From a virus: DNA of 25,861 bases. A program made the translations under genes and the position numbers. Of this stretch, positions 4,241 through 24,749 are shown one piece after another. The stretch lies in UHGV virus genome UHGV-0115523; one strand, given 5' to 3'. Under the pieces are notes generated by a model that saw nothing but the letters and a program-made list of their open reading frames with translations, was not told where the DNA came from and did not search any database. Numbering within the stretch: the stretch's first letter is position 1; each line of letters opens with the position of its first letter.

Positions 4241-4687
4241 TCACCCCGCCAGCCATTGCAGAATCATGTCGCGGGTCATTGCCTCAACATCATCATTTAC
4301 ACCCAGAAGGCGACGCTCTGCGTAACGCACCTCCGGTCCCTTACGACTGACGCGATCTCGCAGGCCGTAATGGTGAACGCGGGCAATGCGCTGCACCTTG
4401 CCTTCAAACTGCACGCTGGCAGAGTCGGTGCTGGCGGCAGTTTTCAGGTATTTTGTGGTGCGCAGCTTTGCAAACATCTGACGTTTGATACGGCCTTTTT
4501 TACTGCGTGCTGTTACCCGTCGCGGTTCATAGCTGCTGCCGTCAGGGTTCCGCTGCATCCTGATATTCTGCTGCTGTGTCCGGCGAAGTTCCTGCGCCAG
4601 CTGGCGCATCATGCGGCTTCTCGAGGCTGGTTCCAGATTCGCCAGCAAGGCACTCAGCCAGTCGTCCACCTTCTGCAGTTCAGCCAC
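4241..4687 (-). CDS. S: Tail completion / virion morphogenesis protein (P2 gpS-like)
   Basis: 148 aa; synteny R-S-V. Confidence 0.8.
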   Translation of the reverse strand: MAELQKVDDWLSALLANLEPASRSRMMRQLAQELRRTQQQNIRMQRNPDGSSYEPRRVTARSKKGRIKRQMFAKLRTTKYLKTAASTDSASVQFEGKVQRIARVHHYGLRDRVSRKGPEVRYAERRLLGVNDDVEAMTRDMILQWLAG

Positions 4688-5111
4688 GTTTCACCGTCCA
4701 CATTTCTTCAGGTGCATCAGGTTCCGCTATAGCTTCAACGCTCGACACACTGCCGTCAGTGCTGACCAGCACACGTTCCGTCAGTTGCAGGTTCAGGCTG
4801 ATATCACAGACATCGTTGCGCAGAATATCCACCTCAAAGGTGAATAGCTTTTCCCGTAACGCCGGGTTATTGATGGCATCGGGCTGGTTATCCCTCAGCC
4901 ACAGCAAAACCGGGGCCATCAGCAGATTCTGGTCGCCGCTGAAATCCTCAATCACCGCGTTCAGTGTGTAACGGTACTCCCACGACATGGAGCTGGCCCC
5001 CGTGGCAACCAGCGAACCGTTATCCACAAACAGATGCAGTTTGTCCGGGTTATTGCGGACATAAGGCACCGCTTTATTGAGGGCGTGGCGCAGGGATTGT
5101 GGTTTGTTCAC
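4680..5111 (-). CDS. R: Tail completion protein (P2 gpR-like); probable GTG start
   Basis: Frame begins VNKPQSLRHAL, similar to the P2 R N-terminus; GTG at 5109-5111 is preceded by AGGAG; the ORF-track ATG at 5132 is an alternative. Confidence 0.7.
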   Translation of the reverse strand: MNKPQSLRHALNKAVPYVRNNPDKLHLFVDNGSLVATGASSMSWEYRYTLNAVIEDFSGDQNLLMAPVLLWLRDNQPDAINNPALREKLFTFEVDILRNDVCDISLNLQLTERVLVSTDGSVSSVEAIAEPDAPEEMWTVKRG

Positions 5112-5364
5112 TGTTTCGCTCCTGACACGCAATAATCATGTCCACTTTGTCTGCACAGACCGCCCAGGCGGCCTCCGTTTCATCCAGCAACGCGTTCAGA
5201 TCACCGTTAGTGCGCGGCGTTGCCTGATCCAGCCGACACGGCGTCACTCGCGGACAACCACTGACGGTAAGCCATACCTCCGGTGAGTGCCGGACGTTTC
5301 CGCAGCCGGATAATGTCAGCAGGCAAAGGAGTATCAGCCCAGCGGCGTAAATCCTCGTTCTCAC
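5074..5364 (-). CDS. lysC: Outer-membrane spanin lipoprotein (LysC / Rz1-like) in an overlapped frame
   Basis: N-terminal signal with lipobox LTLSGC; overlaps the 3' half of the LysB/Rz-like gene in another frame and extends beyond it, as in P2 lysB/lysC. Confidence 0.6.
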   Translation of the reverse strand: MRTRIYAAGLILLCLLTLSGCGNVRHSPEVWLTVSGCPRVTPCRLDQATPRTNGDLNALLDETEAAWAVCADKVDMIIACQERNSEQTTIPAPRPQ

Positions 5365-5635
5365 GTTTCAGTTCCTCGATCCGGTGTTGTCGTTGTCTCA
5401 GCAGCGTGCTGGTCTGTTCTGCTTCGGCATAGAGCCGCGCCTGCTCCCGGTTATTGGTTTCAGTCAGAATGGACAGGCTGATAAGCTGGCTATTGCTCTT
5501 TGCCAGTGCCTGGCTTTTGCTCTGCAGCTCGTCTGCCTGCGTGCTGATGGTCTGGCTGGCATCAGCCAGCCGCCACGTCTGCCAGCCCAGCGCCGCCAGT
5601 AATAACGTCAGCACAACCAGCAGCAACCGGTTCAT
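5207..5635 (-). CDS. lysB: Inner-membrane spanin (LysB / Rz-like)
   Basis: N-terminal TM segment LLLVVLTLLLAALGW followed by a charged coiled-coil-like region; position in the lysis cassette. Confidence 0.7.
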   Translation of the reverse strand: MNRLLLVVLTLLLAALGWQTWRLADASQTISTQADELQSKSQALAKSNSQLISLSILTETNNREQARLYAEAEQTSTLLRQRQHRIEELKRENEDLRRWADTPLPADIIRLRKRPALTGGMAYRQWLSASDAVSAGSGNAAH

Positions 5636-6009
5636 GCTGCTACCTGTTGCGCCATCTGATTACGGGTGATCCAGAAGGCAATAACGGTCAGTAGATAAAA
5701 GACCAGGGTAATAGCCCACCCCGTCCAGGCGAGACTTACAACAATCAGCAATCGCATCACCCAACTGGTAAATACGTTTTCTTTTCGGGTAATTGTCTTC
5801 AGCAAAGATGCCCTTAACTCCTGCCAGAGCGGGCCATTCTTAATTAACGCAGCCAGTGCTACCGGAATTACCGCCCATGTCAGCAAACAGGCTACCCAAA
5901 CGCCGGACGCTGCCAGTACCGGAAAAATCCCCTGCGGATACACCATTGCTGCGATTAACAGCGCCATCCATAACATCAGAAACAGTCCGCTGATTAATTT
6001 CTTTTTCAT
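5632..6009 (-). CDS. lysA: LysA-like membrane protein (lysis timing); start trimmed to MKKKLISGLF
   Basis: Multiple hydrophobic TM segments; ATG at 6007-6009 preceded by GGGAG, one nt after the endolysin stop; position between endolysin and spanins as in P2. Confidence 0.55.
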   Translation of the reverse strand: MKKKLISGLFLMLWMALLIAAMVYPQGIFPVLAASGVWVACLLTWAVIPVALAALIKNGPLWQELRASLLKTITRKENVFTSWVMRLLIVVSLAWTGWAITLVFYLLTVIAFWITRNQMAQQVAA

Positions 6010-6010
6010 T

Positions 6011-6523
6011 TCAGTTTGCTCCCTGTAAACACCAGGCCATCTCCCGCGCACGGCGGTTATCCAGCCCCTGATTAAAAACACCTTTCACATAAACCCAGCG
6101 CGGCAACTGTCGGCATGCATCCGCCCAGCGCCGCTGATTGAGCAATTTCACCAGCGTGGAACTACAGGCATTGCCCGTCCCCACGTTGAAGGCAAACGAC
6201 ACCGTAGCGTCATACACCTTCTGCGGCGGCTGTTGCTTCACACACCTTTCCAGCGCCCGCTCCACTCGTAGCACGTTGGAGATCAGCCCTTCAGCTGCCT
6301 GTCGTTCCGTAATAATTTTGCCGGGAATGACGCCCGACGTATTACCAATGCCGTCGGTCCAGACACCCGCGCTGCACTGATACGGCTGCAGACGACAGCC
6401 TTCATAATCGGCGATCAGTTTCAGTCCCTCCTCGGAGGTGTGAAGCTGCTGAAACCCCGGCAGCGTGGCAGCAATAGCCAGCACGGCCCCGACAAGGCAG
6501 CGTTTAACGATTGATGGATTCAT
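6011..6523 (-). CDS. SAR endolysin, T4/P1-Lyz-type lysozyme with N-terminal signal-anchor-release domain
   Basis: Gly/Ala-rich N-terminal hydrophobic segment CLVGAVLAIAATLPGF; lysozyme motif EGCRLQPYQCSAGVWTDGIGNT; Cys9/Cys43/Cys50 positioned like the regulatory cysteines of P1 Lyz. Confidence 0.75.
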   Translation of the reverse strand: MNPSIVKRCLVGAVLAIAATLPGFQQLHTSEEGLKLIADYEGCRLQPYQCSAGVWTDGIGNTSGVIPGKIITERQAAEGLISNVLRVERALERCVKQQPPQKVYDATVSFAFNVGTGNACSSTLVKLLNQRRWADACRQLPRWVYVKGVFNQGLDNRRAREMAWCLQGAN

Positions 6524-6719
6524 AGTCCTCCCGCGAGATCTGCCCGTCGCGCAGAAGCTGGTAGGCTTTGTGTTTGTAGTACCAGTTGATAGCCAGCATC
6601 AGCACACCGATCATCAGGCCGCCCAGCGTTGAGGCATCCTTGATGGACAAATCGCCCAGCCAGGCCAGCACGACGGCGATGCAATACGTGATAAAGGCGC
6701 TGATTCGCTCAAGCGTCAT
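6504..6719 (-). CDS. Holin (small two-TM holin, likely pinholin partner of the SAR endolysin)
   Basis: 71 aa, two hydrophobic segments, charged C-terminus; immediately upstream of and overlapping the endolysin. Confidence 0.65.
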   Translation of the reverse strand: MTLERISAFITYCIAVVLAWLGDLSIKDASTLGGLMIGVLMLAINWYYKHKAYQLLRDGQISREDYESINR

Positions 6720-6722
6720 AAT

Positions 6723-6926
6723 TCAGTCCCATAGCTGGACGGTCTGCACGGTGGTGGTTGTCGGAATGTCCGGCAGCTCCACCTGCAGCCCGTGAGGTAA
6801 AAAGGGGCCGTATTCGGCAAGCCCCGGATTTGCCTTCAGTACCTGCTCCGTGACACCCTGCGTGCGCCCGTAATGACGCCAGCAAAGTGCGTCCACCGTG
6901 TCATACTGATGCGCACGCACTTTCAT
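6723..6926 (-). CDS. X: Tail protein X (P2 gpX-like)
   Basis: 67 aa, the same length as P2 gpX; position between L and the holin. Confidence 0.7.
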   Translation of the reverse strand: MKVRAHQYDTVDALCWRHYGRTQGVTEQVLKANPGLAEYGPFLPHGLQVELPDIPTTTTVQTVQLWD

Positions 6927-7390
6927 CAGATAAGCTCCACTGTGCAGTGCGGCGCATCCTGCACCCGGCTGATGGCCCAGCGGGCGTCACGCCATAAATC
7001 ACCGCTTGCTTCCGCCAGTTCCTCGCCTCGCTTCGCACCGGATGCCGTGGCGTCATAGTCCTGGTAACGTTCGTTGAGCATGGCGCGTGCCCAGCAGTAA
7101 ACCGCGTTGAAATAGTGCTGAATGCGCTCGCTTTTGCCGTCCAGTTGTTCCGCCGGGACTTCTGCCAGCGAGGCATACCCCAGCATCTGCTGGCGTCTGC
7201 GAAACTCATACAGCTCTGCGTTGACCTCCGAAATTGCCGACAGGGCAACCTGTTTTAAACGCGGCTGCGTCACCGTGCCGTCAGTGCGCATCACACTGCG
7301 AAACTCCGACAGGTCCACATCAGGCCAGAACGGCGTATTCCTGATGATTTCCGCCTGTTCCGGTGCCTGTTCTGGCGCAACAAACTTCAT
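6926..7390 (-). CDS. L: Head completion / stabilisation protein (P2 gpL-like); start trimmed to MKFVAPEQ
   Basis: ATG at 7388-7390 preceded by AGGAG; synteny M-L-X. Confidence 0.75.
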   Translation of the reverse strand: MKFVAPEQAPEQAEIIRNTPFWPDVDLSEFRSVMRTDGTVTQPRLKQVALSAISEVNAELYEFRRRQQMLGYASLAEVPAEQLDGKSERIQHYFNAVYCWARAMLNERYQDYDATASGAKRGEELAEASGDLWRDARWAISRVQDAPHCTVELI

Positions 7391-7485
7391 GCTGCTTTCT
7401 CCTGAAATAGAGGGCGGTGGACGGGGTTTTGATGTGGCAGTACCTTTCGCCACCCCGTGCCGCCCGTGCGCGGGGGCACGTTCTG

Positions 7486-8136
7486 TCAGCGGCTGTCATT
7501 GCGCAGTCTGCGCTCCAGCTGCTGTTTGTCTTTTTTCACGCCACAGCGGGGATCGAGCTGTAACGCATGGTTGAGATGATTAAGGGCAGACGCCGGATTT
7601 CTTTCACTCAGGACAGCGCCAATCGCTTTATGCAGACGCGCCCGTGACTGGTCCGGCATATCCATACCGTCTGTCAGCTCCAGGGTCTGCAGCAACAGAT
7701 CGGCATCAAAGCCGGTGGCGGCAAGCATTGCGCTCTGGGCTGCATCTGCCATTTCCTCTGCCAGCACGGTCTGCACGTTGCGGTTACCTAACGGCATCAC
7801 CCAGCCATGACGCAGGGCGTGACGCCCGATCTCCAGCGCCCCGGCATAATCTCCGGCATCAATGCGCCACAGCATCACGTACATCAGCACGTCATCCTGT
7901 TGAGCGCCTCCGGCAGCCAGGACACCCTCCGCCCAGGCGGCGTACTTCGGCAGCAGCTCCACCTTGATTTCCGCTTTTTTGACCGTGGACTGAACGCCCT
8001 TGAGACGGCGGCGGTCTTCCGCCAGTTGCAGCAGCATCAGGTCATAGCCCGACGCGTGGCGAACGCTGCCGCCCTCGCGGGCGGCCTGTTCAGCCTGAAC
8101 GCGCAGGCGATGCTGCCGTGCGGGACTCAGGCTCAT
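7486..8136 (-). CDS. M: Terminase endonuclease (small) subunit (P2 gpM-like)
   Basis: 216 aa; directly downstream of capsid gene N; synteny O-N-M-L. Confidence 0.75.
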   Translation of the reverse strand: MSLSPARQHRLRVQAEQAAREGGSVRHASGYDLMLLQLAEDRRRLKGVQSTVKKAEIKVELLPKYAAWAEGVLAAGGAQQDDVLMYVMLWRIDAGDYAGALEIGRHALRHGWVMPLGNRNVQTVLAEEMADAAQSAMLAATGFDADLLLQTLELTDGMDMPDQSRARLHKAIGAVLSERNPASALNHLNHALQLDPRCGVKKDKQQLERRLRNDSR

Positions 8137-8139
8137 GAA

Positions 8140-9198
8140 TTACGCTCCGGTTTCTGCTGCTGCGGCGCTGAAGTCGCCAATCTGGATGTTTTCCACCAGT
8201 GCGGCGCAGCGGTAGTCCTCAACCACATAGGCTTCGTTAACGGATTCAAAGTTTTCAATCCGGTCACGTTTCGGGTTGTCGATAACTGAGCGGCGGCGGG
8301 TGTCTTCCTGCCAGTAGATGGACAGGTTATCCAGACGGGTGATCAGCAGTGCATTCGGCGGGAAGAACGGCGCACGCACGGCCTGCAGGCCACCCATGCG
8401 TTTTTGACTGATGATCATATCGGCAGCCAGTTTTTCACTGTTTTCCTGCTCTTTGTTGACCAGCGGGAAATACTTGTCAGACAGCAGTTCACGACCGCAA
8501 ATCACCACCAGATCGTCATCGTCCTGGTAGACCACATCGATAAGCTCATTGACGGCATCCATCACCACGGCGTCCAGGTTGGCATATTCGCCACCTTTCC
8601 CGACTTTCACCGCACCCGGTGTGGTTTCACCGCCCGTGGTGGTGCTGCCCATGACGTGATCCGGTGCATCTTCACGGATTTTCTGCAGCCAGCCTTTGTT
8701 CACATCCTGCAGCAGCGGGTTTTCGCTACGGTTGGAGGTTTTCGCACGCTTCACGCCGTTAAAGCCGATCATGATGCGGTCCAGAGCCTGACGTTTCACG
8801 ATGGCGTCACGGATGCGCACCTGGAAATCCTGAAACTTCGCCCACAGGTCCAGCTTCGCGTAGGTCAGCACCGTGTCAAAGTTGGTCTGCTCGCATTTAT
8901 ATTCCACATCGACCATCAGCGTCGGATCGACAGGTTCACGCTCTTTCGCGGTGGTGTCAGTGGTTCCGGCAATGGTGCTGCCAACTCCCAGCCCCAGCAG
9001 CTGACCGGACTGCTCAGTCACTGGCGTGACGTTAATCAGCGTCAGGAAAGCGGCGGACTGCTGGATCTGGTCTTCCAGCGTCTGCTGCACAGACGGCTCC
9101 ACAGTGAACTTGCTGGACAGTTCTTCAACTGCCACACCGTTCAGACGCGCCAGCTGCTGCAGGTAAGCGTTAAAAGCAAAGCGGGTATTCTTCTTCAT
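8140..9198 (-). CDS. N: Major capsid protein (P2 gpN-like)
   Basis: 352 aa (P2 gpN is about 357 aa); translation typical of P2-family capsid precursor; synteny. Confidence 0.85.
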   Translation of the reverse strand: MKKNTRFAFNAYLQQLARLNGVAVEELSSKFTVEPSVQQTLEDQIQQSAAFLTLINVTPVTEQSGQLLGLGVGSTIAGTTDTTAKEREPVDPTLMVDVEYKCEQTNFDTVLTYAKLDLWAKFQDFQVRIRDAIVKRQALDRIMIGFNGVKRAKTSNRSENPLLQDVNKGWLQKIREDAPDHVMGSTTTGGETTPGAVKVGKGGEYANLDAVVMDAVNELIDVVYQDDDDLVVICGRELLSDKYFPLVNKEQENSEKLAADMIISQKRMGGLQAVRAPFFPPNALLITRLDNLSIYWQEDTRRRSVIDNPKRDRIENFESVNEAYVVEDYRCAALVENIQIGDFSAAAAETGA

Positions 9199-11957: not shown

Positions 11958-12985
11958 TGGGAAAGAGTAAGAAGAACCGCGCTGCGGCGACGAATCAGAT
12001 CCAGTATAAAAAACAAACTTCAGCCGAAGCATTCAGCTTCGGTGATCCCGTTCCTGTTCTGGACCGCCGCGAATTACTGGACTATGTGGAATGCGTACAG
12101 ACAGATCGCTGGTATGAGCCGCCAGTAAGCTTTGACGGACTGGCGCGCACCTTCCGCGCCGCCGTGCATCACAGTTCACCAATTGCGGTGAAATGCAACA
12201 TTCTGACCAGTACCTACATCCCTCACCCGCTGCTCAGCCAGCAGGCTTTTTCACGTTTTGTGCAGGACTATCTGGTATTTGGTAACGCCTACCTGGAGAA
12301 ACGCACGAACCGCTTCGGTGAAATTATCGCCTTTGAACCTGCCCTGGCAAAATACACACGACGCGGGTTAGACCTGGATACCTACTGGTTTGTGCAATAC
12401 GGTATGACAACCCAGCCGTATCAGTTCACGAAAGGCAGCATTTTTCATCTGATGGAACCGGACATCAACCAGGAGATCTACGGCCTGCCCGGTTATCTTT
12501 CTGCCATTCCGTCAGCCCTGCTCAACGAGTCCGCCACGCTGTTCCGCCGGAAGTATTACATTAACGGCAGTCATGCAGGCTTCATCATGTACATGACCGA
12601 CGCCGCACAAAACCAGGAGGATGTGAACAACCTCCGCAACGCGATGAAAAGCGCCAAAGGCCCAGGTAACTTCCGCAACCTGTTTATGTACTCGCCTAAC
12701 GGCAAAAAGGACGGGCTTCAGATCATCCCGTTGTCAGAAGTCGCGGCGAAGGATGAGTTTCTGAATATCAAAAATGTCAGCCGCGATGACATGATGGCTG
12801 CGCACCGCGTACCGCCTCAGATGATGGGGATTATGCCAAATAATGTAGGGGGGTTTGGAGATGTGGAGAAGGCTAGTAAGGTATTTGTACGCAACGAACT
12901 GATGCCGCTTCAAAAGCGCTTCGAGGAATTGAATAGTTGGGTAGGAAAATCTGTGGTCAACTTTAACACTTATATATTATCTTAA
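11954..12985 (+). CDS. Q: Portal protein (P2 gpQ-like)
   Basis: 343 aa (P2 gpQ is about 344 aa); P-Q on the strand opposite to O-N-M-L, as in P2. Confidence 0.9.
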   Translation: MMGKSKKNRAAATNQIQYKKQTSAEAFSFGDPVPVLDRRELLDYVECVQTDRWYEPPVSFDGLARTFRAAVHHSSPIAVKCNILTSTYIPHPLLSQQAFSRFVQDYLVFGNAYLEKRTNRFGEIIAFEPALAKYTRRGLDLDTYWFVQYGMTTQPYQFTKGSIFHLMEPDINQEIYGLPGYLSAIPSALLNESATLFRRKYYINGSHAGFIMYMTDAAQNQEDVNNLRNAMKSAKGPGNFRNLFMYSPNGKKDGLQIIPLSEVAAKDEFLNIKNVSRDDMMAAHRVPPQMMGIMPNNVGGFGDVEKASKVFVRNELMPLQKRFEELNSWVGKSVVNFNTYILS

Positions 12986-12986
12986 T

Positions 12987-13029
12987 AAACATCTCTTGCA
13001 GGAAACTTCCCTGCAAGAGATGTTTTGCA
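12987..13029. terminator. Bidirectional intrinsic terminator between convergent Q and the cargo operon
   Basis: Perfect 15-16 bp inverted repeat aaacatctcttgcagg / cctgcaagagatgttt around a 7-nt loop, flanked by T-runs on both strands. Confidence 0.65.
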
Positions 13030-13036
13030 ATGACAC

Positions 13037-13318
13037 TCAAAAAGATAATAATCGCCCCCCAACATTTTCGATAAAATCTAACTCTAACTCCTCCATATCG
13101 GATATTATCATGAGATGAATAGGCAATATCAATTGAAGTTTATTTATTTTCATTCTCAAAAGAATAACATCTGGAACATAACCAACGATTAAAATATCGA
13201 TGTCATTGGCTTCATCGATACTTTTGAGTGCGGAGCCAAACAAATAAACCCGGACTCCATACAAGCAATGCTCCAAAATAATATCACAAACAGCTTCAGT
13301 TATAACTGATAAATTCAT
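13037..13318 (-). CDS. Minimal nucleotidyltransferase (MNT, Pol-beta superfamily) domain protein, about 93 aa; start trimmed to the Met that overlaps the upstream stop
   Basis: Motif LFGSALKSIDEANDIDILIV fits hG[GS]-x9-DhD; ATG at 13316-13318 overlaps the upstream TGA (TGATG coupling); AT-rich. Confidence 0.6.
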   Translation of the reverse strand: MNLSVITEAVCDIILEHCLYGVRVYLFGSALKSIDEANDIDILIVGYVPDVILLRMKINKLQLILPIHLMIISDMEELELDFIENVGGRLLSF

Positions 13319-13968
13319 CACTTCGAAATTCGACTCAGCAAATCTCCCCATTTGAATATTTCAATATTCATACTTCGGGCTGCAATGGTAGCCTCATGGG
13401 TAATTCTACTATAAGGGTTAGACGATAAAATAATATCGCAACCGCCATGTATCTGACATGCAGTGCGCACAGCCTCTGCACTCAAATCATAATCATTCAC
13501 GGAAAGAATAATCAAACTTGGTCCTGAACACCTTTCAACCATATATTTTTTATTGGTCAACCTTTCGACACTGCTGACATCAGAGTGTTGACGGAGTCCA
13601 CGGATAATAAATTTATTTTCTTTATCAAGATGTTCACTGATATTTTCTAAATCTAAACCCGTTGAAAAACGTCCAAAAGAATCATATGCAATCCCTTTTG
13701 ACCGTAGCAACTCAATTGCATCTCCAGACATAAATAACAAATCGCCTTGAATAATTAGTATATTTAATTCTTTATCATTCAAATATTCATTTAAATCGGA
13801 TAGTTCTATTCTTCCTGCATTTACAGCACCAACAAGATATATCTCCCCATTCCTTGTTGTTACCGTTAAAGTTTGATTGTCATGTTCTATAACATTATCA
13901 ACACTATGTTTAGTGCATAACTTTTTATTCATCCAATTAATAAAATTCTGACTCATTCCAATGCTCAT
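13318..13968 (-). CDS. Hypothetical 216-aa protein, middle gene of the cargo operon (contains an RGLRQH stretch; function unknown)
   Basis: Long ORF tightly coupled to flanking genes (3-nt gap upstream, 1-nt overlap downstream); AGGGTGA RBS; AT-rich. Confidence 0.5.
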   Translation of the reverse strand: MSIGMSQNFINWMNKKLCTKHSVDNVIEHDNQTLTVTTRNGEIYLVGAVNAGRIELSDLNEYLNDKELNILIIQGDLLFMSGDAIELLRSKGIAYDSFGRFSTGLDLENISEHLDKENKFIIRGLRQHSDVSSVERLTNKKYMVERCSGPSLIILSVNDYDLSAEAVRTACQIHGGCDIILSSNPYSRITHEATIAARSMNIEIFKWGDLLSRISK

Positions 13969-13971
13969 AAC

Positions 13972-14667
13972 TCACCCTTTAAATAAATCAATTGCTTCAG
14001 GAGGGAATTTCTCACCATTATCACATGTTAACTCTAAATGTTTTGATTCAAAATCATCAACATGCATGCAAAGCTTAACAAAAACATCTTTTTCATCTTC
14101 ATGAATTAATTGATAATTTTTATCAATTAGTCTTATAATTTTTCTGTTATTAGGTAGGATATGTGTTTGGATTTTCCTTAACCATATATTTACTTGCGGA
14201 CTTTCAGGGTTTAGTGCTGCCTCTGATTGGGGTCCATACGTATTAAATATTACTTTATTTTCCCTAAACAACTTATCAAGCTCAGCATGTACCTCTTCAC
14301 GGCTATCAAACTCACGAACTCCAAAGGTTGCATTAATTTTCGCGATATGCTCTCCTTTCCATCCCCTGATAATTTCATCCGTATAATAATTCTCAGCTTT
14401 ATCTATTTTAGTATGACAATTAGCGCAAAGAAGAATTATATTATCAAAATACCCTCTCTCTTCGGCAGTTAATTCCGTATTAGTTCTAGGCCCATTATCA
14501 ATTGCACTGAATATATGCGCCAATTCACCAATTGTAATAATTTTATCTCCAGCATCTTCGAACAACGGTTCAAGACATTTAGGGTTCTGGCAATACCCAC
14601 CTGAACTTGCGAAGAGCTTCCTGACTGTGATTGATCCGGGACTAGCCCGCCCTCGTGAACATGCCAT
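13972..14667 (-). CDS. HNH nuclease-domain protein (N-terminal HNH motif plus about 140-aa C-terminal domain of unknown function)
   Basis: CQNPKC ... ELAHI ... FDNIILLCANCH gives the CxxC...H...N...CxxCH HNH signature; AGGAGA RBS; first gene of the three-gene operon. Confidence 0.65.
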   Translation of the reverse strand: MACSRGRASPGSITVRKLFASSGGYCQNPKCLEPLFEDAGDKIITIGELAHIFSAIDNGPRTNTELTAEERGYFDNIILLCANCHTKIDKAENYYTDEIIRGWKGEHIAKINATFGVREFDSREEVHAELDKLFRENKVIFNTYGPQSEAALNPESPQVNIWLRKIQTHILPNNRKIIRLIDKNYQLIHEDEKDVFVKLCMHVDDFESKHLELTCDNGEKFPPEAIDLFKG

Positions 14668-14786
14668 TTCGTATCTCCTGATTGGGTTCGAATTTTACAA
14701 TAAATTATGATAATCAAACAAATTTAGCTAGCAAATAAATTTCCTATGTCGTTTAATTTCCCTAGCGTTTTAATATCAAGCGCGCG

Positions 14787-14805
14787 CTCGTATCCCCGCC
14801 ACGCC
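14787..14805 (-). other. Candidate cos (cohesive end) site of the P2/186 type
   Basis: Minus-strand GGCGTGGCGGGGATACGAG resembles the remembered 19-nt cohesive ends of 186 (GGCGTGGCGGGGAAAGCAT) and P2 (GGCGAGGCGGGGAAAGCAC); lies at the expected place beyond the 3' end of Q. Confidence 0.5.
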
Positions 14806-15147
14806 TGCCCGCTTTATGTAGTGGTTTTCATGCAGGTGCATGATCTACGCAAAAGCCCGCCAGTTCTGGCGGGCCTTAGCAAAAACGATCCTCAAACGAT
14901 CATGCAATCTCATGCAGCATAGACATGCACAGACGAGTAAAGCGAATCGGACCTTACGCAAGGTGAACTCCTCAGCGGGCATAATCAGTATGTCGGAAGA
15001 TCTCTAAAAATAAATAATTCGGTTAACAGGTATGCTTACAAAAGCATATATTTGATTAAAAATCATGTAAGGGGGAGGATCTCAAACTGAATCGCCACGG
15101 GTTTTACAAATTTCGATAGTCTCTCTAACGTTTCGGCTGAGGTCAAA

Positions 15148-15573
15148 ATGAAAAGCTTTTACGTATTAATTTTAATTCTGGTTGCAAGCTTTGTTAGCGT
15201 CCCAGTTCAGGCGGTAACAGCTAAAAACTATGAGAAAGGAACTAAAGCTCAACAGAAATCAATATCTTACCTTTCATGTGCATTCTATGGCAGTAGCACA
15301 CAATTAGATCCTAGCTACACGGAGCAAGTACCTACAGCCGATATCAAGATATTACAGAAAGCAGCTTACCACGCTTACAACGATGCGCTCTCATACTTTG
15401 GCTATGAGGAACCAGATCACGAACAACGCATAATTGATTATGCTGAATTTGTGGCGTCGCAAGAAGCTGTGTTATGGGATAAGCCGGGAATGAATGGAAA
15501 GCAGGTAACACTAATTGCTCGTTCTCTCTACAATGAGAGTAACTGTAACTTGTTACTGGACTCAATTAAGTAG
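15148..15573 (+). CDS. Secreted or periplasmic hypothetical protein with cleavable signal peptide (cargo)
   Basis: N-terminus MKSFYVLILILVASFVSVPVQA then mature domain; GAGGT RBS; AT-rich. Confidence 0.55.
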   Translation: MKSFYVLILILVASFVSVPVQAVTAKNYEKGTKAQQKSISYLSCAFYGSSTQLDPSYTEQVPTADIKILQKAAYHAYNDALSYFGYEEPDHEQRIIDYAEFVASQEAVLWDKPGMNGKQVTLIARSLYNESNCNLLLDSIK

Positions 15574-15732
15574 GAAAAAGATGGTATTTTGCCCGTAGTT
15601 TCAACCTTAATCTCCGAACCTGTCGCAGAACGGGCGTTCACTCATCAAATAAACGCCACACCTAACGCCTCACTGTACTCGTTGTTCAACCTTGCTGACG
15701 CCAGAACCAAGTTCAGACGCCAGCAACTTTTC

Positions 15733-15966
15733 TTAATGCAGCCAGCTGTCGTCTTCCCACACCTTCTGCATAATCTTCATCACTTGTTTTCTTTCTTCGT
15801 CCAGTTGCAGTCCGGTCAGTTCCACACCGTTAGAGCTACCTTTGCGGATGCGAATTACCATTTTGGGATACAGGGGGCGCAGATTGCGGTAAAGCTCGGA
15901 TTCAAGGGCGTCCAGGGTAGACTGGCTAATCTTCTGCTCTTTATCGATCATTATTTCAATGCGCAT
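15733..15966 (-). CDS. DinI-family protein (about 77 aa)
   Basis: MRIEIMIDKEQKISQSTLDALESELYRNLRPLYPKMVIRIRKGSSNGVELTGLQLDEERKQVMKIMQKVWEDDSWLH matches the DinI pattern (MRIE..., acidic W-containing C-terminus); GAGGTG RBS; the ORF-track frame extends upstream to 16038 but that start is less likely. Confidence 0.65.
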   Translation of the reverse strand: MRIEIMIDKEQKISQSTLDALESELYRNLRPLYPKMVIRIRKGSSNGVELTGLQLDEERKQVMKIMQKVWEDDSWLH

Positions 15967-15976
15967 AAAGGTCACC

Positions 15977-16165
15977 TCAGCTGATGACATCCATTGAGCG
16001 GTTGTATTCGTGGGTTCTGATTTTTGCCATGAGTTCATCAGTCAATTCAGAAACCCACTGCAGAGCCAGCCCCTTCTCTTCATCACTACACTCACTAGCC
16101 GCTACAAGCTTAAGAAAAAAATCAATGCGCTGGAGCTTCAAAGACTCCAAAAAATAGTCCTGCAT
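15977..16165 (-). CDS. Small 62-aa protein, first gene of a LexA-box-controlled cassette
   Basis: Strong AGGAGG RBS 7 nt upstream of the ATG; LexA box 43-58 bp upstream; stop 10 nt before the DinI-like start. Confidence 0.5.
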   Translation of the reverse strand: MQDYFLESLKLQRIDFFLKLVAASECSDEEKGLALQWVSELTDELMAKIRTHEYNRSMDVIS

Positions 16166-22061: not shown

Positions 22062-22943
22062 ATGAATTTCAAAAACGGAGGACAAGCAGTCATAACGCGC
22101 ATGCTTGAAGCGTATGGATTCAAGACAAGGCAAGCTCTGTGCGAACAGTTCAACGTATCTGCAAGCACTATGGGCACGCGCTGGATGCGTGACGTATTTC
22201 CTGCTGACTGGGTAATTCAGTGTGCAATTGAAACGGGTGCATCTATCGAGTGGCTCTCATTCGGAAAAGGCGTACCATTCCCTCAGAGTACTGAGGCTCC
22301 GGTCATGTCAAAGGCAACTGCATCAAAGGTTCAGCACGTTTCTCAAGCCACCACCCTGAAGTCCCCAATTGGGAACGATCTGAATTTTGACTCAGGCGGA
22401 CGTGATGCAATAGACAGGCTAATGAAAGCGTATGGCTTTAAAACAAGACAAGAACTTGCCGACCATCTGAATGTATCTAAAAGCACTATGGCAAATAGAT
22501 ATTTGCGAGACACATTCCCGGCTGATTGGATCATAAAATGTTCGTTGGAAACAGGAAATTCTCTTTTATGGCTAGCCACTGGACAAGGCAGCGAGCACAA
22601 TGCTCTCACAACATCGGTAAAAGAACTGCCTAAATTTCATCTCAATGCAGGCAAAATGGTTGAGAGTGGCTCATATATTTTCGATTCGTCATTTTTACCC
22701 GCTAATCTTTCAGCACCAATTGTCGTTCAGGATGGTTTAGTGGCATACATCTGTGATCAGAAATTTTCTGATGTATTAGATGGATACTGGTTAATTAATA
22801 TTGATGGAACCTATTCCGTCAGACAAATTACTAGGCTACCTAAAGGTATGATAAATATCAGAAGTAAAGAAACTTACTTTGAATGTGCATTTTCTGATAT
22901 CGAGGTAGTTGCATGCATAAGAAGCACAATCATTTCGAATTAA
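22062..22943 (+). CDS. cI: CI immunity repressor (186 CI family) with a tandemly duplicated N-terminal DNA-binding domain
   Basis: Two copies of the 186-CI-type NTD signature (AYGFKTRQ...NVS.STM..R..RD.FPADW.I.C..ETG.S..WL..G.G) at residues ~9-70 and ~115-176; 293 aa versus about 192 aa for 186 CI. Confidence 0.7.
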   Translation: MNFKNGGQAVITRMLEAYGFKTRQALCEQFNVSASTMGTRWMRDVFPADWVIQCAIETGASIEWLSFGKGVPFPQSTEAPVMSKATASKVQHVSQATTLKSPIGNDLNFDSGGRDAIDRLMKAYGFKTRQELADHLNVSKSTMANRYLRDTFPADWIIKCSLETGNSLLWLATGQGSEHNALTTSVKELPKFHLNAGKMVESGSYIFDSSFLPANLSAPIVVQDGLVAYICDQKFSDVLDGYWLINIDGTYSVRQITRLPKGMINIRSKETYFECAFSDIEVVACIRSTIISN

Positions 22944-23023
22944 AGTGACATTCAACAAATGTCATTCTAATAGAAGTGATTATATTAAGCGAAAGATTTA
23001 AAAGGTGAAGAGAAGCAATAACA

Positions 23024-24226
23024 ATGAGTAAAACCAACTTTAAAACTGAACGCGGCATTATAACATTTTTTGATTTAGAAATGTTTGGCCTTTATAAAAT
23101 ACGACAAGGCAAATCGCCGGAATTAGTCGAAAAGAACTTATCCCATGTTCTGTGTAACTTACATAGCTGGATCTGTTCAAGAACAGTTGAACAATCTGTT
23201 CCATGGGGAAAGGATAATAATAGAAGAACAAAAGCATACTGTAAAAATATTTCATATGACAGTACGACAGGAGATTATCTATTTGTTATCTGGAAAACGC
23301 TTGGTGATAACTCTGGAAATATTCAAGGTATAGATGCTGAAAGTAAGATTGACGGCACTTCAGATAATGTTGTATCCGCCTCTGATACTCAAGGTGGCGG
23401 TAAATATATCTGGGGCGTACCTTGCTACTATTGGGTAATTCCAGAATATAACAAAATTGCATCCATACGATTCCCAAGTTCTAATACGGATACAGATCTT
23501 TTCTGTCATTATATTAAAGCATACGTTGACTTTAGGATGGAGCATCCTAATAAAAAAGTCATAGATATGACTCGTCCTCGTAATGACTCACCTGAAGACG
23601 TTCATTACAAACGTGTTCTTTTTTCTCAAGGTGATGATGAAAGTTTAGTTTTTAAAGTACAGACTAAACAAACAAGGATGATCACGAGTGGAGCAAACAT
23701 AGAAGAACTGTGTAAAAAAATCACTCACATTGTTTACCATGACGTAATAGAAACAAACATACCTGATACACGGGAAAAATGGCAGAAGTTATTTGATGCA
23801 GTTGGAGATGTTTTCTCAAGAAGCTCTCCTATTTTATCAAAAAAACATCGCGTTGAATTATTAGTCGAAGGAACGCCTACGCCTGAAGAGTTCACTAAAC
23901 TCATCGATGAATATATAGAAAACCACAATCCTATTTCAGAAGATACAGAAAACAACAATGAGAATGTAGGGAATGATCACGCACGCATCGGATTCAAAAT
24001 AAATGGGAAAAATGGTTCAACTACTTGGTTAGATGAATATGTTTATCGCCATGAAATTCACGTTGACCTTTCTAACAGAAACAAACATTACTCTTCTTCA
24101 TATTTAATGAGTGTGGTAAAAGCTCATAGAAATGATTTGGTGAATTGTTTTAAAAATGAAGATATAATAGAACAACCAGAAGCTGATAATGATACAGCAG
24201 TGCAGATTCATAAAATAGGTGCATAG
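23024..24226 (+). CDS. Hypothetical 400-aa protein (cargo; candidate sensor of a two-gene module)
   Basis: Long AT-rich ORF immediately downstream of cI on the same strand; no motif recognised. Confidence 0.55.
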   Translation: MSKTNFKTERGIITFFDLEMFGLYKIRQGKSPELVEKNLSHVLCNLHSWICSRTVEQSVPWGKDNNRRTKAYCKNISYDSTTGDYLFVIWKTLGDNSGNIQGIDAESKIDGTSDNVVSASDTQGGGKYIWGVPCYYWVIPEYNKIASIRFPSSNTDTDLFCHYIKAYVDFRMEHPNKKVIDMTRPRNDSPEDVHYKRVLFSQGDDESLVFKVQTKQTRMITSGANIEELCKKITHIVYHDVIETNIPDTREKWQKLFDAVGDVFSRSSPILSKKHRVELLVEGTPTPEEFTKLIDEYIENHNPISEDTENNNENVGNDHARIGFKINGKNGSTTWLDEYVYRHEIHVDLSNRNKHYSSSYLMSVVKAHRNDLVNCFKNEDIIEQPEADNDTAVQIHKIGA

Positions 24227-24227
24227 T

Positions 24228-24749
24228 ATGATTATAAAACCTAAAATTTTGCACATATGTTTTCTCCTAACAATTATAGCTATTGCTTATTTGTTCGGAG
24301 ACAAATATACGTATGCAGATATAAAAGATATTTTATCTACCTTGCAAAACATTTCTGCAATGATCTTCACTATTGCAGGTATTTGGCTTGCATATATTTA
24401 CCCTGCAGCTGTAAGTTCAATTGTAAAGCCATCAACAATAACTAGTATAAACTATCATAAGGAAACAGAAAAAGATATTGAGCGAATTACGCTGATAGTG
24501 AAAACCATTATAATTTCAGCTATTGTAATATTTTCTATTGTTATAATAAATTTAACGAAACCTATATTTTCAAATCTGGATTTCATTTCCTTGCATAAGC
24601 ACGTGTTCTGCAAGTTTGGATTTTTTATCACAGCGTTATTAGTATATCTACAAATAATAGCGTTATTTAGTATCATTGCTAGTAATATATTATTTCTTAA
24701 TGATATACATGATAAAAGAAATAAACGAGAGCTTGATAAATTAAGGTAA
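24228..24749 (+). CDS. Small integral membrane protein with four predicted TM helices (cargo; candidate membrane effector)
   Basis: Four hydrophobic stretches; ATG at 24228 with AGGTG RBS, one nt after the upstream stop; GTG at 24219 is the ORF-track alternative. Confidence 0.55.
   Translation: MIIKPKILHICFLLTIIAIAYLFGDKYTYADIKDILSTLQNISAMIFTIAGIWLAYIYPAAVSSIVKPSTITSINYHKETEKDIERITLIVKTIIISAIVIFSIVIINLTKPIFSNLDFISLHKHVFCKFGFFITALLVYLQIIALFSIIASNILFLNDIHDKRNKRELDKLR

Follow-up and report, generated by a model that had tools for sequence, protein, structure and literature searches.

How would the lysis region of a P2-like prophage hold its muramidase silent until the moment of lysis, if that enzyme carries its own membrane anchor? 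The question is raised by two adjoining genes in a window of 25,861 nucleotides (UHGV virus genome UHGV-0115523; the window is the whole stretch of DNA that was analysed), which code for a class II holin of 71 aa (6504-6719) and for a GH24 lysozyme of 170 aa, a predicted P1 Lyz-type SAR endolysin (6011-6523). The whole lysis region lies on the minus strand, and its neighbours were assigned by Pfam, PHROG and NCBIfam scans. In the order of transcription, the genes for the major capsid protein (8140-9198), the terminase small subunit (7486-8136), the head-completion protein gpL (6926-7453) and the tail protein gpX (6723-6926; Pfam Phage_tail_X, 2.2e-34) precede the holin and lysozyme genes, and a homologue of LysA (5632-6009), LysB (5207-5635), LysC (5074-5364) and the tail-completion protein gpR (4680-5132) come after them, all on the minus strand. 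The end of the holin gene overlaps the start of the lysozyme gene by 20 nt, a GGGAGG Shine–Dalgarno sequence can be read upstream of the lysozyme ATG, and the ATG of the LysA homologue stands 1 nt past the lysozyme stop codon. The LysA homologue (125 aa; NCBIfam DNZ54_00345 family, 1.2e-35) is a membrane protein with four TMDs by hydropathy and a putative antiholin or lysis-timing factor. LysB is an Rz-like inner-membrane spanin (TIGR03495 phage_LysB, 1.9e-51; phrog_89), and LysC, whose frame overlaps lysB out of frame, is an Rz1-like outer-membrane lipoprotein spanin (Pfam LysC, 6.6e-16; NCBIfam P2_Rz1, 8.9e-36) with the lipobox LSGC. The positions and residue numbers that a preliminary description had given for the holin and the lysozyme are exact: both reading frames lie on the minus strand, and in the lysozyme the codons, checked directly, place Cys9 at 6497-6499, Glu41 at 6401-6403, Cys43 at 6395-6397 and Cys50 at 6374-6376. 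We consider it likely that the region represents the lysis cassette in the late operon of an E. coli prophage that is P2-like (Fels-2/186-related), and that it is made up of a class II holin, a SAR endolysin, a LysA-like protein and the LysB/LysC spanins.

Comparison with P2 shows how much of this cassette departs from the prototype. In both phages the lysis genes stand between X and R of the late operon, and homologues of LysA, LysB and LysC are found here in the P2 order. By BLAST, gpX is 61% identical to P2 X, gpR 53% to P2 R and gpL 40% to P2 L, while LysC shares 41% identity with P2 LysC over 92 aa and LysB 35% with P2 LysB; phrog_162 is common to the LysA homologue (2.2e-43), P2 LysA (1.8e-67) and the protein annotated as 'putative antiholin' in Escherichia phage Midge. 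The two remaining genes differ. The BLAST match of the holin to P2 Y (E = 1e-4) covers the TMD only, and Y, a holin of 93 aa, belongs to phrog_175 and not to phrog_20, the family of the holin described here; the lysozyme shows no significant similarity to P2 K by BLAST (E = 0.006 over 26 aa), K being a cytoplasmic, lambda R-like enzyme. Judged by these comparisons, only the holin–endolysin pair (Y, K) is replaced relative to P2, with gpX at the upstream edge of the exchanged segment, and the homologues of LysA, LysB and LysC remain. Thus, the earlier suggestion of an exchanged lysis cassette holds for the holin and the endolysin, which are unrelated to Y and K, but has to be narrowed to those two genes.

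The lysozyme matches the Pfam Phage_lysozyme family (PF00959, 1.4e-39), which identifies a GH24, or T4 lysozyme-type, muramidase domain. Its closest relative of solved structure is P1 Lyz, the SAR endolysin controlled by disulfide isomerisation (PDB 1XJT/1XJU; E = 1.1e-26 for 1XJT), the R21, RrrD and T4 lysozymes being more distant; the protein is 37% identical to P1 Lyz, 35% to HP1 Lys, 36% to RrrD (across the catalytic domain) and 97% to KP12.peg.319. When the lysozyme was aligned by MAFFT with the proteins encoded by lyz of P1, lys of HP1 and rrrD of E. coli, E41, C43, C50 and T56 of the catalytic and regulatory motif E41-G-C43-x6-C50-x5-T56 (6356-6403, minus strand) fell in the same columns as E42, C44, C51 and T57 of P1 Lyz and E47, C49, C56 and T62 of HP1 Lys. 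The catalytic triad is therefore present in the form Glu-x8-Cys-x5-Thr (E41, C50, T56), with Cys replacing the usual Asp, and the partner cysteine, C43, is found two residues past the catalytic Glu, in the column of P1 C44. HP1 Lys likewise has the cysteine triad of the lysozyme described here. Across 54 close homologues E41, C50 and T56 never vary, and C43 is nearly invariant (at least 90%). On these alignments the match of the motif to P1 Lyz is one of homology and not of chance. The P1 Lyz-like arrangement of these four residues, which had been proposed earlier, is thus borne out column by column, and the alignment suggested as a check on it places both active-site cysteines, C43 and C50, at the regulatory positions of P1 Lyz. 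Foldseek reconfirmed the P1 Lyz fold, 1XJT being the best PDB match (TM 0.74) of an AlphaFold2 model. The model was built from a shallow alignment of 54 sequences and its pLDDT falls below 50 at residues 1-10 and 40-69, that is, in the region of the cysteines, and for this reason we draw from it neither the geometry of the cysteines nor an active or inactive conformation. Two other known arrangements are not those of the present enzyme. The R21 type has Glu-x8-Asp-x5-Thr, with a catalytic Asp and no regulatory cysteines, whereas here positions 43 and 50 are both Cys (Val and Asp in RrrD). The disulfide cage of Lyz103 reportedly involves cysteines before and after the catalytic Glu; in the lysozyme Asp39 and Tyr40 precede E41, and C43 is the only flanking cysteine.

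The third cysteine of a P1-type switch would have to come from the N-terminal segment. Cys9 lies at the N-edge of the N-terminal hydrophobic segment, directly after K7-R8, and residues 9-24 (CLVGAVLAIAATLPGF; 6452-6499, minus strand) form the putative SAR anchor. The K7R8 pair is followed by 22 uncharged residues (best 12-residue Kyte–Doolittle mean 2.53; 35-44% Gly/Ala/Ser/Thr). The hydrophobic core within them is a short one of 13-16 residues, and the best 17-residue window sums to +3.1 on the Hessa scale, where P1, HP1 and R21 come to about 0. In P1 Lyz, too, a cysteine is present in the N-terminal segment, but the details differ: here the cysteine stands directly after K-R, the hydrophobic stretch is shorter, and Cys9 is offset by about 3 residues from P1 Cys13, such that it is separated from the catalytic Glu by 32 residues, against 29 in P1 and 36 in HP1 (family range 29-36, with 32 the commonest). 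HMMER, moreover, aligns P1 Cys13 to L15 and not to Cys9. Since Cys9 stands outside the HMMER column of P1 Cys13, its position was tested across homologues. The set comprised 150 diverse homologues from a search of 1.84 billion cluster representatives (clusters at 50% identity), filtered for a catalytic Glu in place and within 75 residues of the N-terminus and for M, V or L as the start residue, and deduplicated at the N-terminus; clusters at 50% were chosen because the top 120 matches of a word-indexed search were all at least 80% identical, and hence useless for covariation. Among the homologues with an N-terminal hydrophobic segment, a cysteine occurs in the segment in 17 of the 18 that have Cys at both 43 and 50, always near its N-terminal edge, and in none of the 6 that lack the pair (RrrD/R21-type and others); Fisher's test gives p = 5e-5, a value uncorrected for the relatedness of the sequences. 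Among the 54 close homologues no change is seen at R8 or C9 and little at K7 (at least 90% conserved), while positions 10-13 vary.

The pair C43/C50 is not in itself diagnostic of SAR regulation, because about half of the homologues that have it lack a hydrophobic N-terminus and presumably stay in the cytoplasm. Read across the family, the mark of a P1-type switch is the C43/C50 pair together with an N-terminal cysteine, in exported members. This co-occurrence supports an uncleaved SAR anchor with disulfide switching of the P1 type. The claim that the N-terminus is a SAR segment containing the regulatory cysteine of P1 Lyz is accordingly upheld as to the presence of Cys9 in an N-terminal hydrophobic segment and its invariance in the 54 close homologues, but not as to the HMMER column of P1 Cys13. 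Cys9 as the cysteine of a lipoprotein was ruled out, as V-K-R precedes it and there is no lipobox. The single C43/C50 homologue with a hydrophobic segment that has no cysteine in it begins MAGALLSALAAF and may represent a mis-called start.

A different reading of the N-terminal segment is that it is a cleavable Sec signal peptide, releasing a soluble periplasmic lysozyme that would be restrained by means other than tethering. The 13-residue h-region that follows K7R8, the A16-I17-A18 sequence within the segment, a possible site for signal peptidase, and the helix-breaking Pro-Gly nearby would all suit a signal peptide. A-I-A, however, is also found in P1 Lyz, whose N-terminal segment is said to remain uncleaved. 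Cleavage would remove Cys9, and the retention of a segment cysteine in nearly all exported C43/C50 homologues, together with the conservation of K7, R8 and C9 in close relatives, argues against a cleaved segment. An active, soluble lysozyme in the periplasm would, in addition, kill the host before assembly is complete. SignalP did predict a signal peptide for the HP1 homologue (PMC7312051). Taken together, we regard a cleaved segment as improbable.

Even with an uncleaved anchor, control could be exerted mainly as in R21, where the SAR helix, once released, refolds non-covalently into the catalytic domain; the cysteines would then be structural or incidental. The lysozyme does resemble RrrD and R21, and not the P1 and HP1 enzymes, in having no 11-residue insertion in the C-terminal lobe, and the many homologues taken to be cytoplasmic carry C43 and C50 with no regulatory need for them. 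Such control, however, has to contend with a Cys at position 50 in place of the Asp of R21/RrrD and with the C43–C50 disulfide expected in the oxidising periplasm, and it leaves the tight co-occurrence with an N-terminal cysteine unexplained; we give it little credence. The preferred reading remains a P1-type disulfide switch.

As for the partner of the lysozyme, residues 6-22 and ~29-48 of the holin are hydrophobic and form its two TMDs; the protein has a charged C-terminus and a single start codon, and its gene adjoins and overlaps that of the endolysin. It passes the cutoff of the Pfam HP1 holin family (PF16080, 36.7 bits against 28.8) and narrowly misses that of the P21 holin S model (23.2 bits against 26); its PGAP name is 'HP1 family phage holin'. 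At the level of PHROGs it falls in phrog_20 (1.9e-26), as do EssD/S21 (1.7e-33), HP1 Hol (9.3e-10) and the class II holin of Midge. Like S21-68, the prototype pinholin of phage 21 (EssD of DLP12, which is paired with the SAR-type lysozyme RrrD as S21-68 is with R21), it is a two-TMD class II holin, and its TMD2 is 45% identical over 20 residues to that of S21, with the small-xxx-small-xxx-small face (S30/G34/G38) kept. The first TMD is another matter. The releasable TMD1 of S21/EssD is rich in Gly, Ala and Ser (65% Gly/Ala/Ser/Thr) and has a summed Hessa value of +6.49, and that of HP1 Hol has +3.88, whereas TMD1 of the present holin (ISAFITYCIAVVLAWLG) sums to -0.56 with 35% Gly/Ala/Ser/Thr. 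It is strongly hydrophobic, and not the weakly hydrophobic, releasable (SAR-like) segment of S21, as far as the Hessa sum, a simple scale, can tell. Nor does the holin gene contain the dual start of S21: a start for an antiholin was sought, but there is only one Met, with an in-frame TGA two codons upstream of it.

These features bear on whether the protein is a pinholin or a canonical, large-hole class II holin that would merely depolarise the membrane on behalf of the SAR endolysin, in the way that LydA serves P1 Lyz. Canonical holins can serve SAR or exported endolysins, as in P1 (LydA) and fOg44 (PMC6116005; PMC9025707), and a hydrophobic TMD1 and the score below the cutoff of the P21 holin S model would be in keeping with such a protein; TMD1 and the single start codon both speak against a strict S21-type pinholin. 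Against this have to be set the PHROG shared with S21/EssD and HP1 Hol, the alignment of TMD2 with that of S21, including its small-residue face, and the position of the gene directly upstream of, and overlapping, a SAR endolysin gene, which is the usual pinholin arrangement. A canonical holin is a possibility to be taken seriously, though the less likely one, and it is compatible with a P1 Lyz-type switch in the endolysin. Because TMD1 is far more hydrophobic than in S21 or HP1 Hol, 'pinholin' is a label that we infer; on sequence grounds the protein would act as a depolarising trigger, for which the label is plausible. We leave the size of the holin hole aside, since depolarisation is all that a SAR endolysin needs. 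What had been put forward as the expected pinholin partner therefore agrees with that description in its two TMDs, its membership of phrog_20 and PF16080 and its place next to the endolysin gene, and departs from it in the strong hydrophobicity of TMD1.

A close parallel among the systems studied by experiment is that of Haemophilus phage HP1, itself P2-like, for which experiments indicate a pinholin and a SAR endolysin: hol is needed for lysis, the lesions are too small for beta-galactosidase, and the endolysin is P1 Lyz-like and Sec-dependent (PMC7312051). The two cassettes have in common the Pfam family and PHROG of the holin, the overlapping hol-lys order, a holin gene with no dual start and a Peduoviridae backbone. 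They differ in that the similarity to HP1 Hol is seen at the profile level only (BLAST E = 0.19), the present TMD1 is by far the more hydrophobic, and HP1 has no homologue of LysA. P1 differs in its organisation, with lyz preceding lydD and the main holin unlinked, whereas here the lysozyme follows the holin in a late operon of the P2 type.

A P1 Lyz-type SAR endolysin triggered by a class II holin is, by analogy with these systems, the best explanation of the locus and in our judgement a rather probable one. The analysis itself establishes how the genes are ordered, which families they belong to, how the cysteines align and that they occur together across homologues; from P1 Lyz, R21 and HP1 we infer the following course of events. 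Once the late operon is expressed, Sec would insert the lysozyme, made together with the holin, the LysA homologue and the spanins, in the form of a type II signal-anchor protein, and residues ~9-24, remaining uncleaved, would tether it to the inner membrane. In the periplasm, a Cys43–Cys50 disulfide would lock the catalytic Cys50, so that the tethered enzyme would be inactive, with the thiol of Cys9 out of reach at the cytoplasmic edge of the bilayer. Triggering of the holin would collapse the proton-motive force and the anchor would exit the membrane; Cys9 could then attack the disulfide, forming Cys9–Cys43, freeing Cys50 and rendering the muramidase active. Disruption of the outer membrane would next fall to the LysB–LysC spanin, with the timing probably tuned by the LysA homologue. 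The LysA homologue is kept here beside a holin of the S21/HP1 type that has a very hydrophobic TMD1 and no dual start, and we offer, as a conjecture rather unlikely to be correct, that its role in timing, if real, is not that of an antiholin specific for Y, and that it would act instead on the SAR endolysin or on the energisation of the membrane; the holin itself might trigger by a change of topology unlike that of S21, as proposed for HP1 Hol.

The cassette is widespread. Among 5,426 complete E. coli genomes, 1,039 have the 2-kb region, in most cases with an identity of at least 95%. In E. coli strain 1283 a prophage that lies between ybjL and rcdA matches it at 100%, and the proteins are identical to RefSeq WP_001069895.1 and WP_000171568.1 of that strain. 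Cassette DNA about 97% identical is found in the Klebsiella phages 4LV2017 and KP12 and in many Kp48xx records, and more distant versions occur in Fels-2, RE-2010, SEN8, ENT90 and Yersinia P2-like phages. Numerous ORFs of 296 aa in which the lysozyme is fused to a LysA-like sequence (lysozyme::LysA) were considered as a real architecture and set aside: they arise by different frameshifts and nearly all form single-member clusters, pointing to mutations or assembly errors. The cassette is the standard one for the Fels-2/HP1-type lineages of P2-like phages and has already been annotated and published, so that the novelty implied in the preliminary description falls away. The annotation of Fels-2 notes the similarity of its endolysin STM2715 to P1 Lyz and lists the 71-aa protein as a putative holin with two TMDs; the annotation of Midge lists a class II holin, a SAR endolysin, a putative antiholin, an i-spanin and an o-spanin; the HP1 work likewise came earlier; and a paper of 2023 described KP12.peg.319 as structurally P1 Lyz-like with a conserved SAR domain, and sought a pinholin, leaving the cysteines undiscussed (PMC9902359).

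Past its correct annotation the cassette matters little, and it raises no new question on its own. We suggest the labels 'class II holin (HP1/S21 family)' and 'SAR endolysin, P1 Lyz type', the latter replacing the generic 'lysozyme'. The co-occurrence of the cysteines lends modest comparative support to regarding the P1 disulfide switch as the rule among the exported members of this GH24 branch. Its abundance among prophages of E. coli, Klebsiella and Salmonella would make the cassette a convenient natural system for questions on SAR endolysins and pinholins. The cassettes of Fels-2, KP12/4LV2017 and Midge have the orthologous gene set in the same order and show essentially no difference from the one described here.

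Among the homologues of the window lysozyme recovered by database search is a natural variant, P0085 from Dryocola sp., which shares 86% identity with the product of 6011-6523 (-) and in which Cys43 is replaced by Gly (YEGGRLQPYQC), with Cys9 and Cys50 both retained. This naturally occurring protein would lend itself to testing the disulfide-lock model. The N-terminal hydrophobic segment is absent from about half of the diverse homologues with Cys at both active-site positions, 43 and 50, whose sequences open with the catalytic domain itself. A catalytic Cys in place of Asp is thus also widespread among GH24 endolysins that are presumably cytoplasmic.

The search that yielded P0085 also returned ORFs in which the lysozyme runs to roughly residue 160-164 and is then joined to the downstream LysA-like membrane protein (junction of window 6011-6050 with 5632-6081; P0006, P0010-P0014, P0017 and others). 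ORFs of 296 aa account for 31 of the 120 best database matches, and additional fusion variants range in size from 276 to 295 aa. The fusions are produced by distinct frameshifts, reading …AREMPGVY, …ARRWPGVY, …AREMACVY or …AREMARAY across the junction, and in nearly all cases form single-member clusters; the P0017 ORF was found on 30 contigs. Mutation in decaying prophages, or faulty assembly of their sequences, is the probable origin of these lysozyme::LysA-like ORFs. At the other end of the gene, three ORFs of 196-197 aa (P0037, P0049 and P0098), homologous to window 6452-6719, join the holin N-terminus, through …GVLMLAI, straight to the lysozyme at …AIAATLPGF. The motif LAI is common to the second transmembrane domain of the holin and the lysozyme anchor, and the holin::lysozyme fusions are the result of a deletion across this microhomology.

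Within the lysis cassette, a GTG start at position 5364 yields a LysC of 96 aa (5074-5364, -), collinear with P2 LysC, which is also 96 aa long. For the identical sequence in E. coli strain 1283, PGAP places the lysC start 42 nt further downstream, leaving almost no signal peptide ahead of the LSGC lipobox.

Two regions of the window are unlike the reference prophage of strain 1283. In the first, at 22062-24749 (+), a 293-aa CI repressor ORF, in which Pfam detects the Phage_CI_repr HTH domain as two matched stretches together with the CI C-terminal domain, is followed by ORFs of 400 and 176 aa, both without any Pfam match, and then by the integrase. The second is the cargo (13037-14667, -) of a variable island at 12916-15988; this cargo adjoins the portal gene and looks like an anti-phage defence module. 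It encodes three proteins: one of 216 aa with no match, one of 104 aa that resembles nucleotidyltransferases (Pfam, 2e-4), and an HNH endonuclease of 231 aa, which matches PADLOC PDC-M68A (1e-28) and also CBASS-type endonuclease effectors (2e-21).
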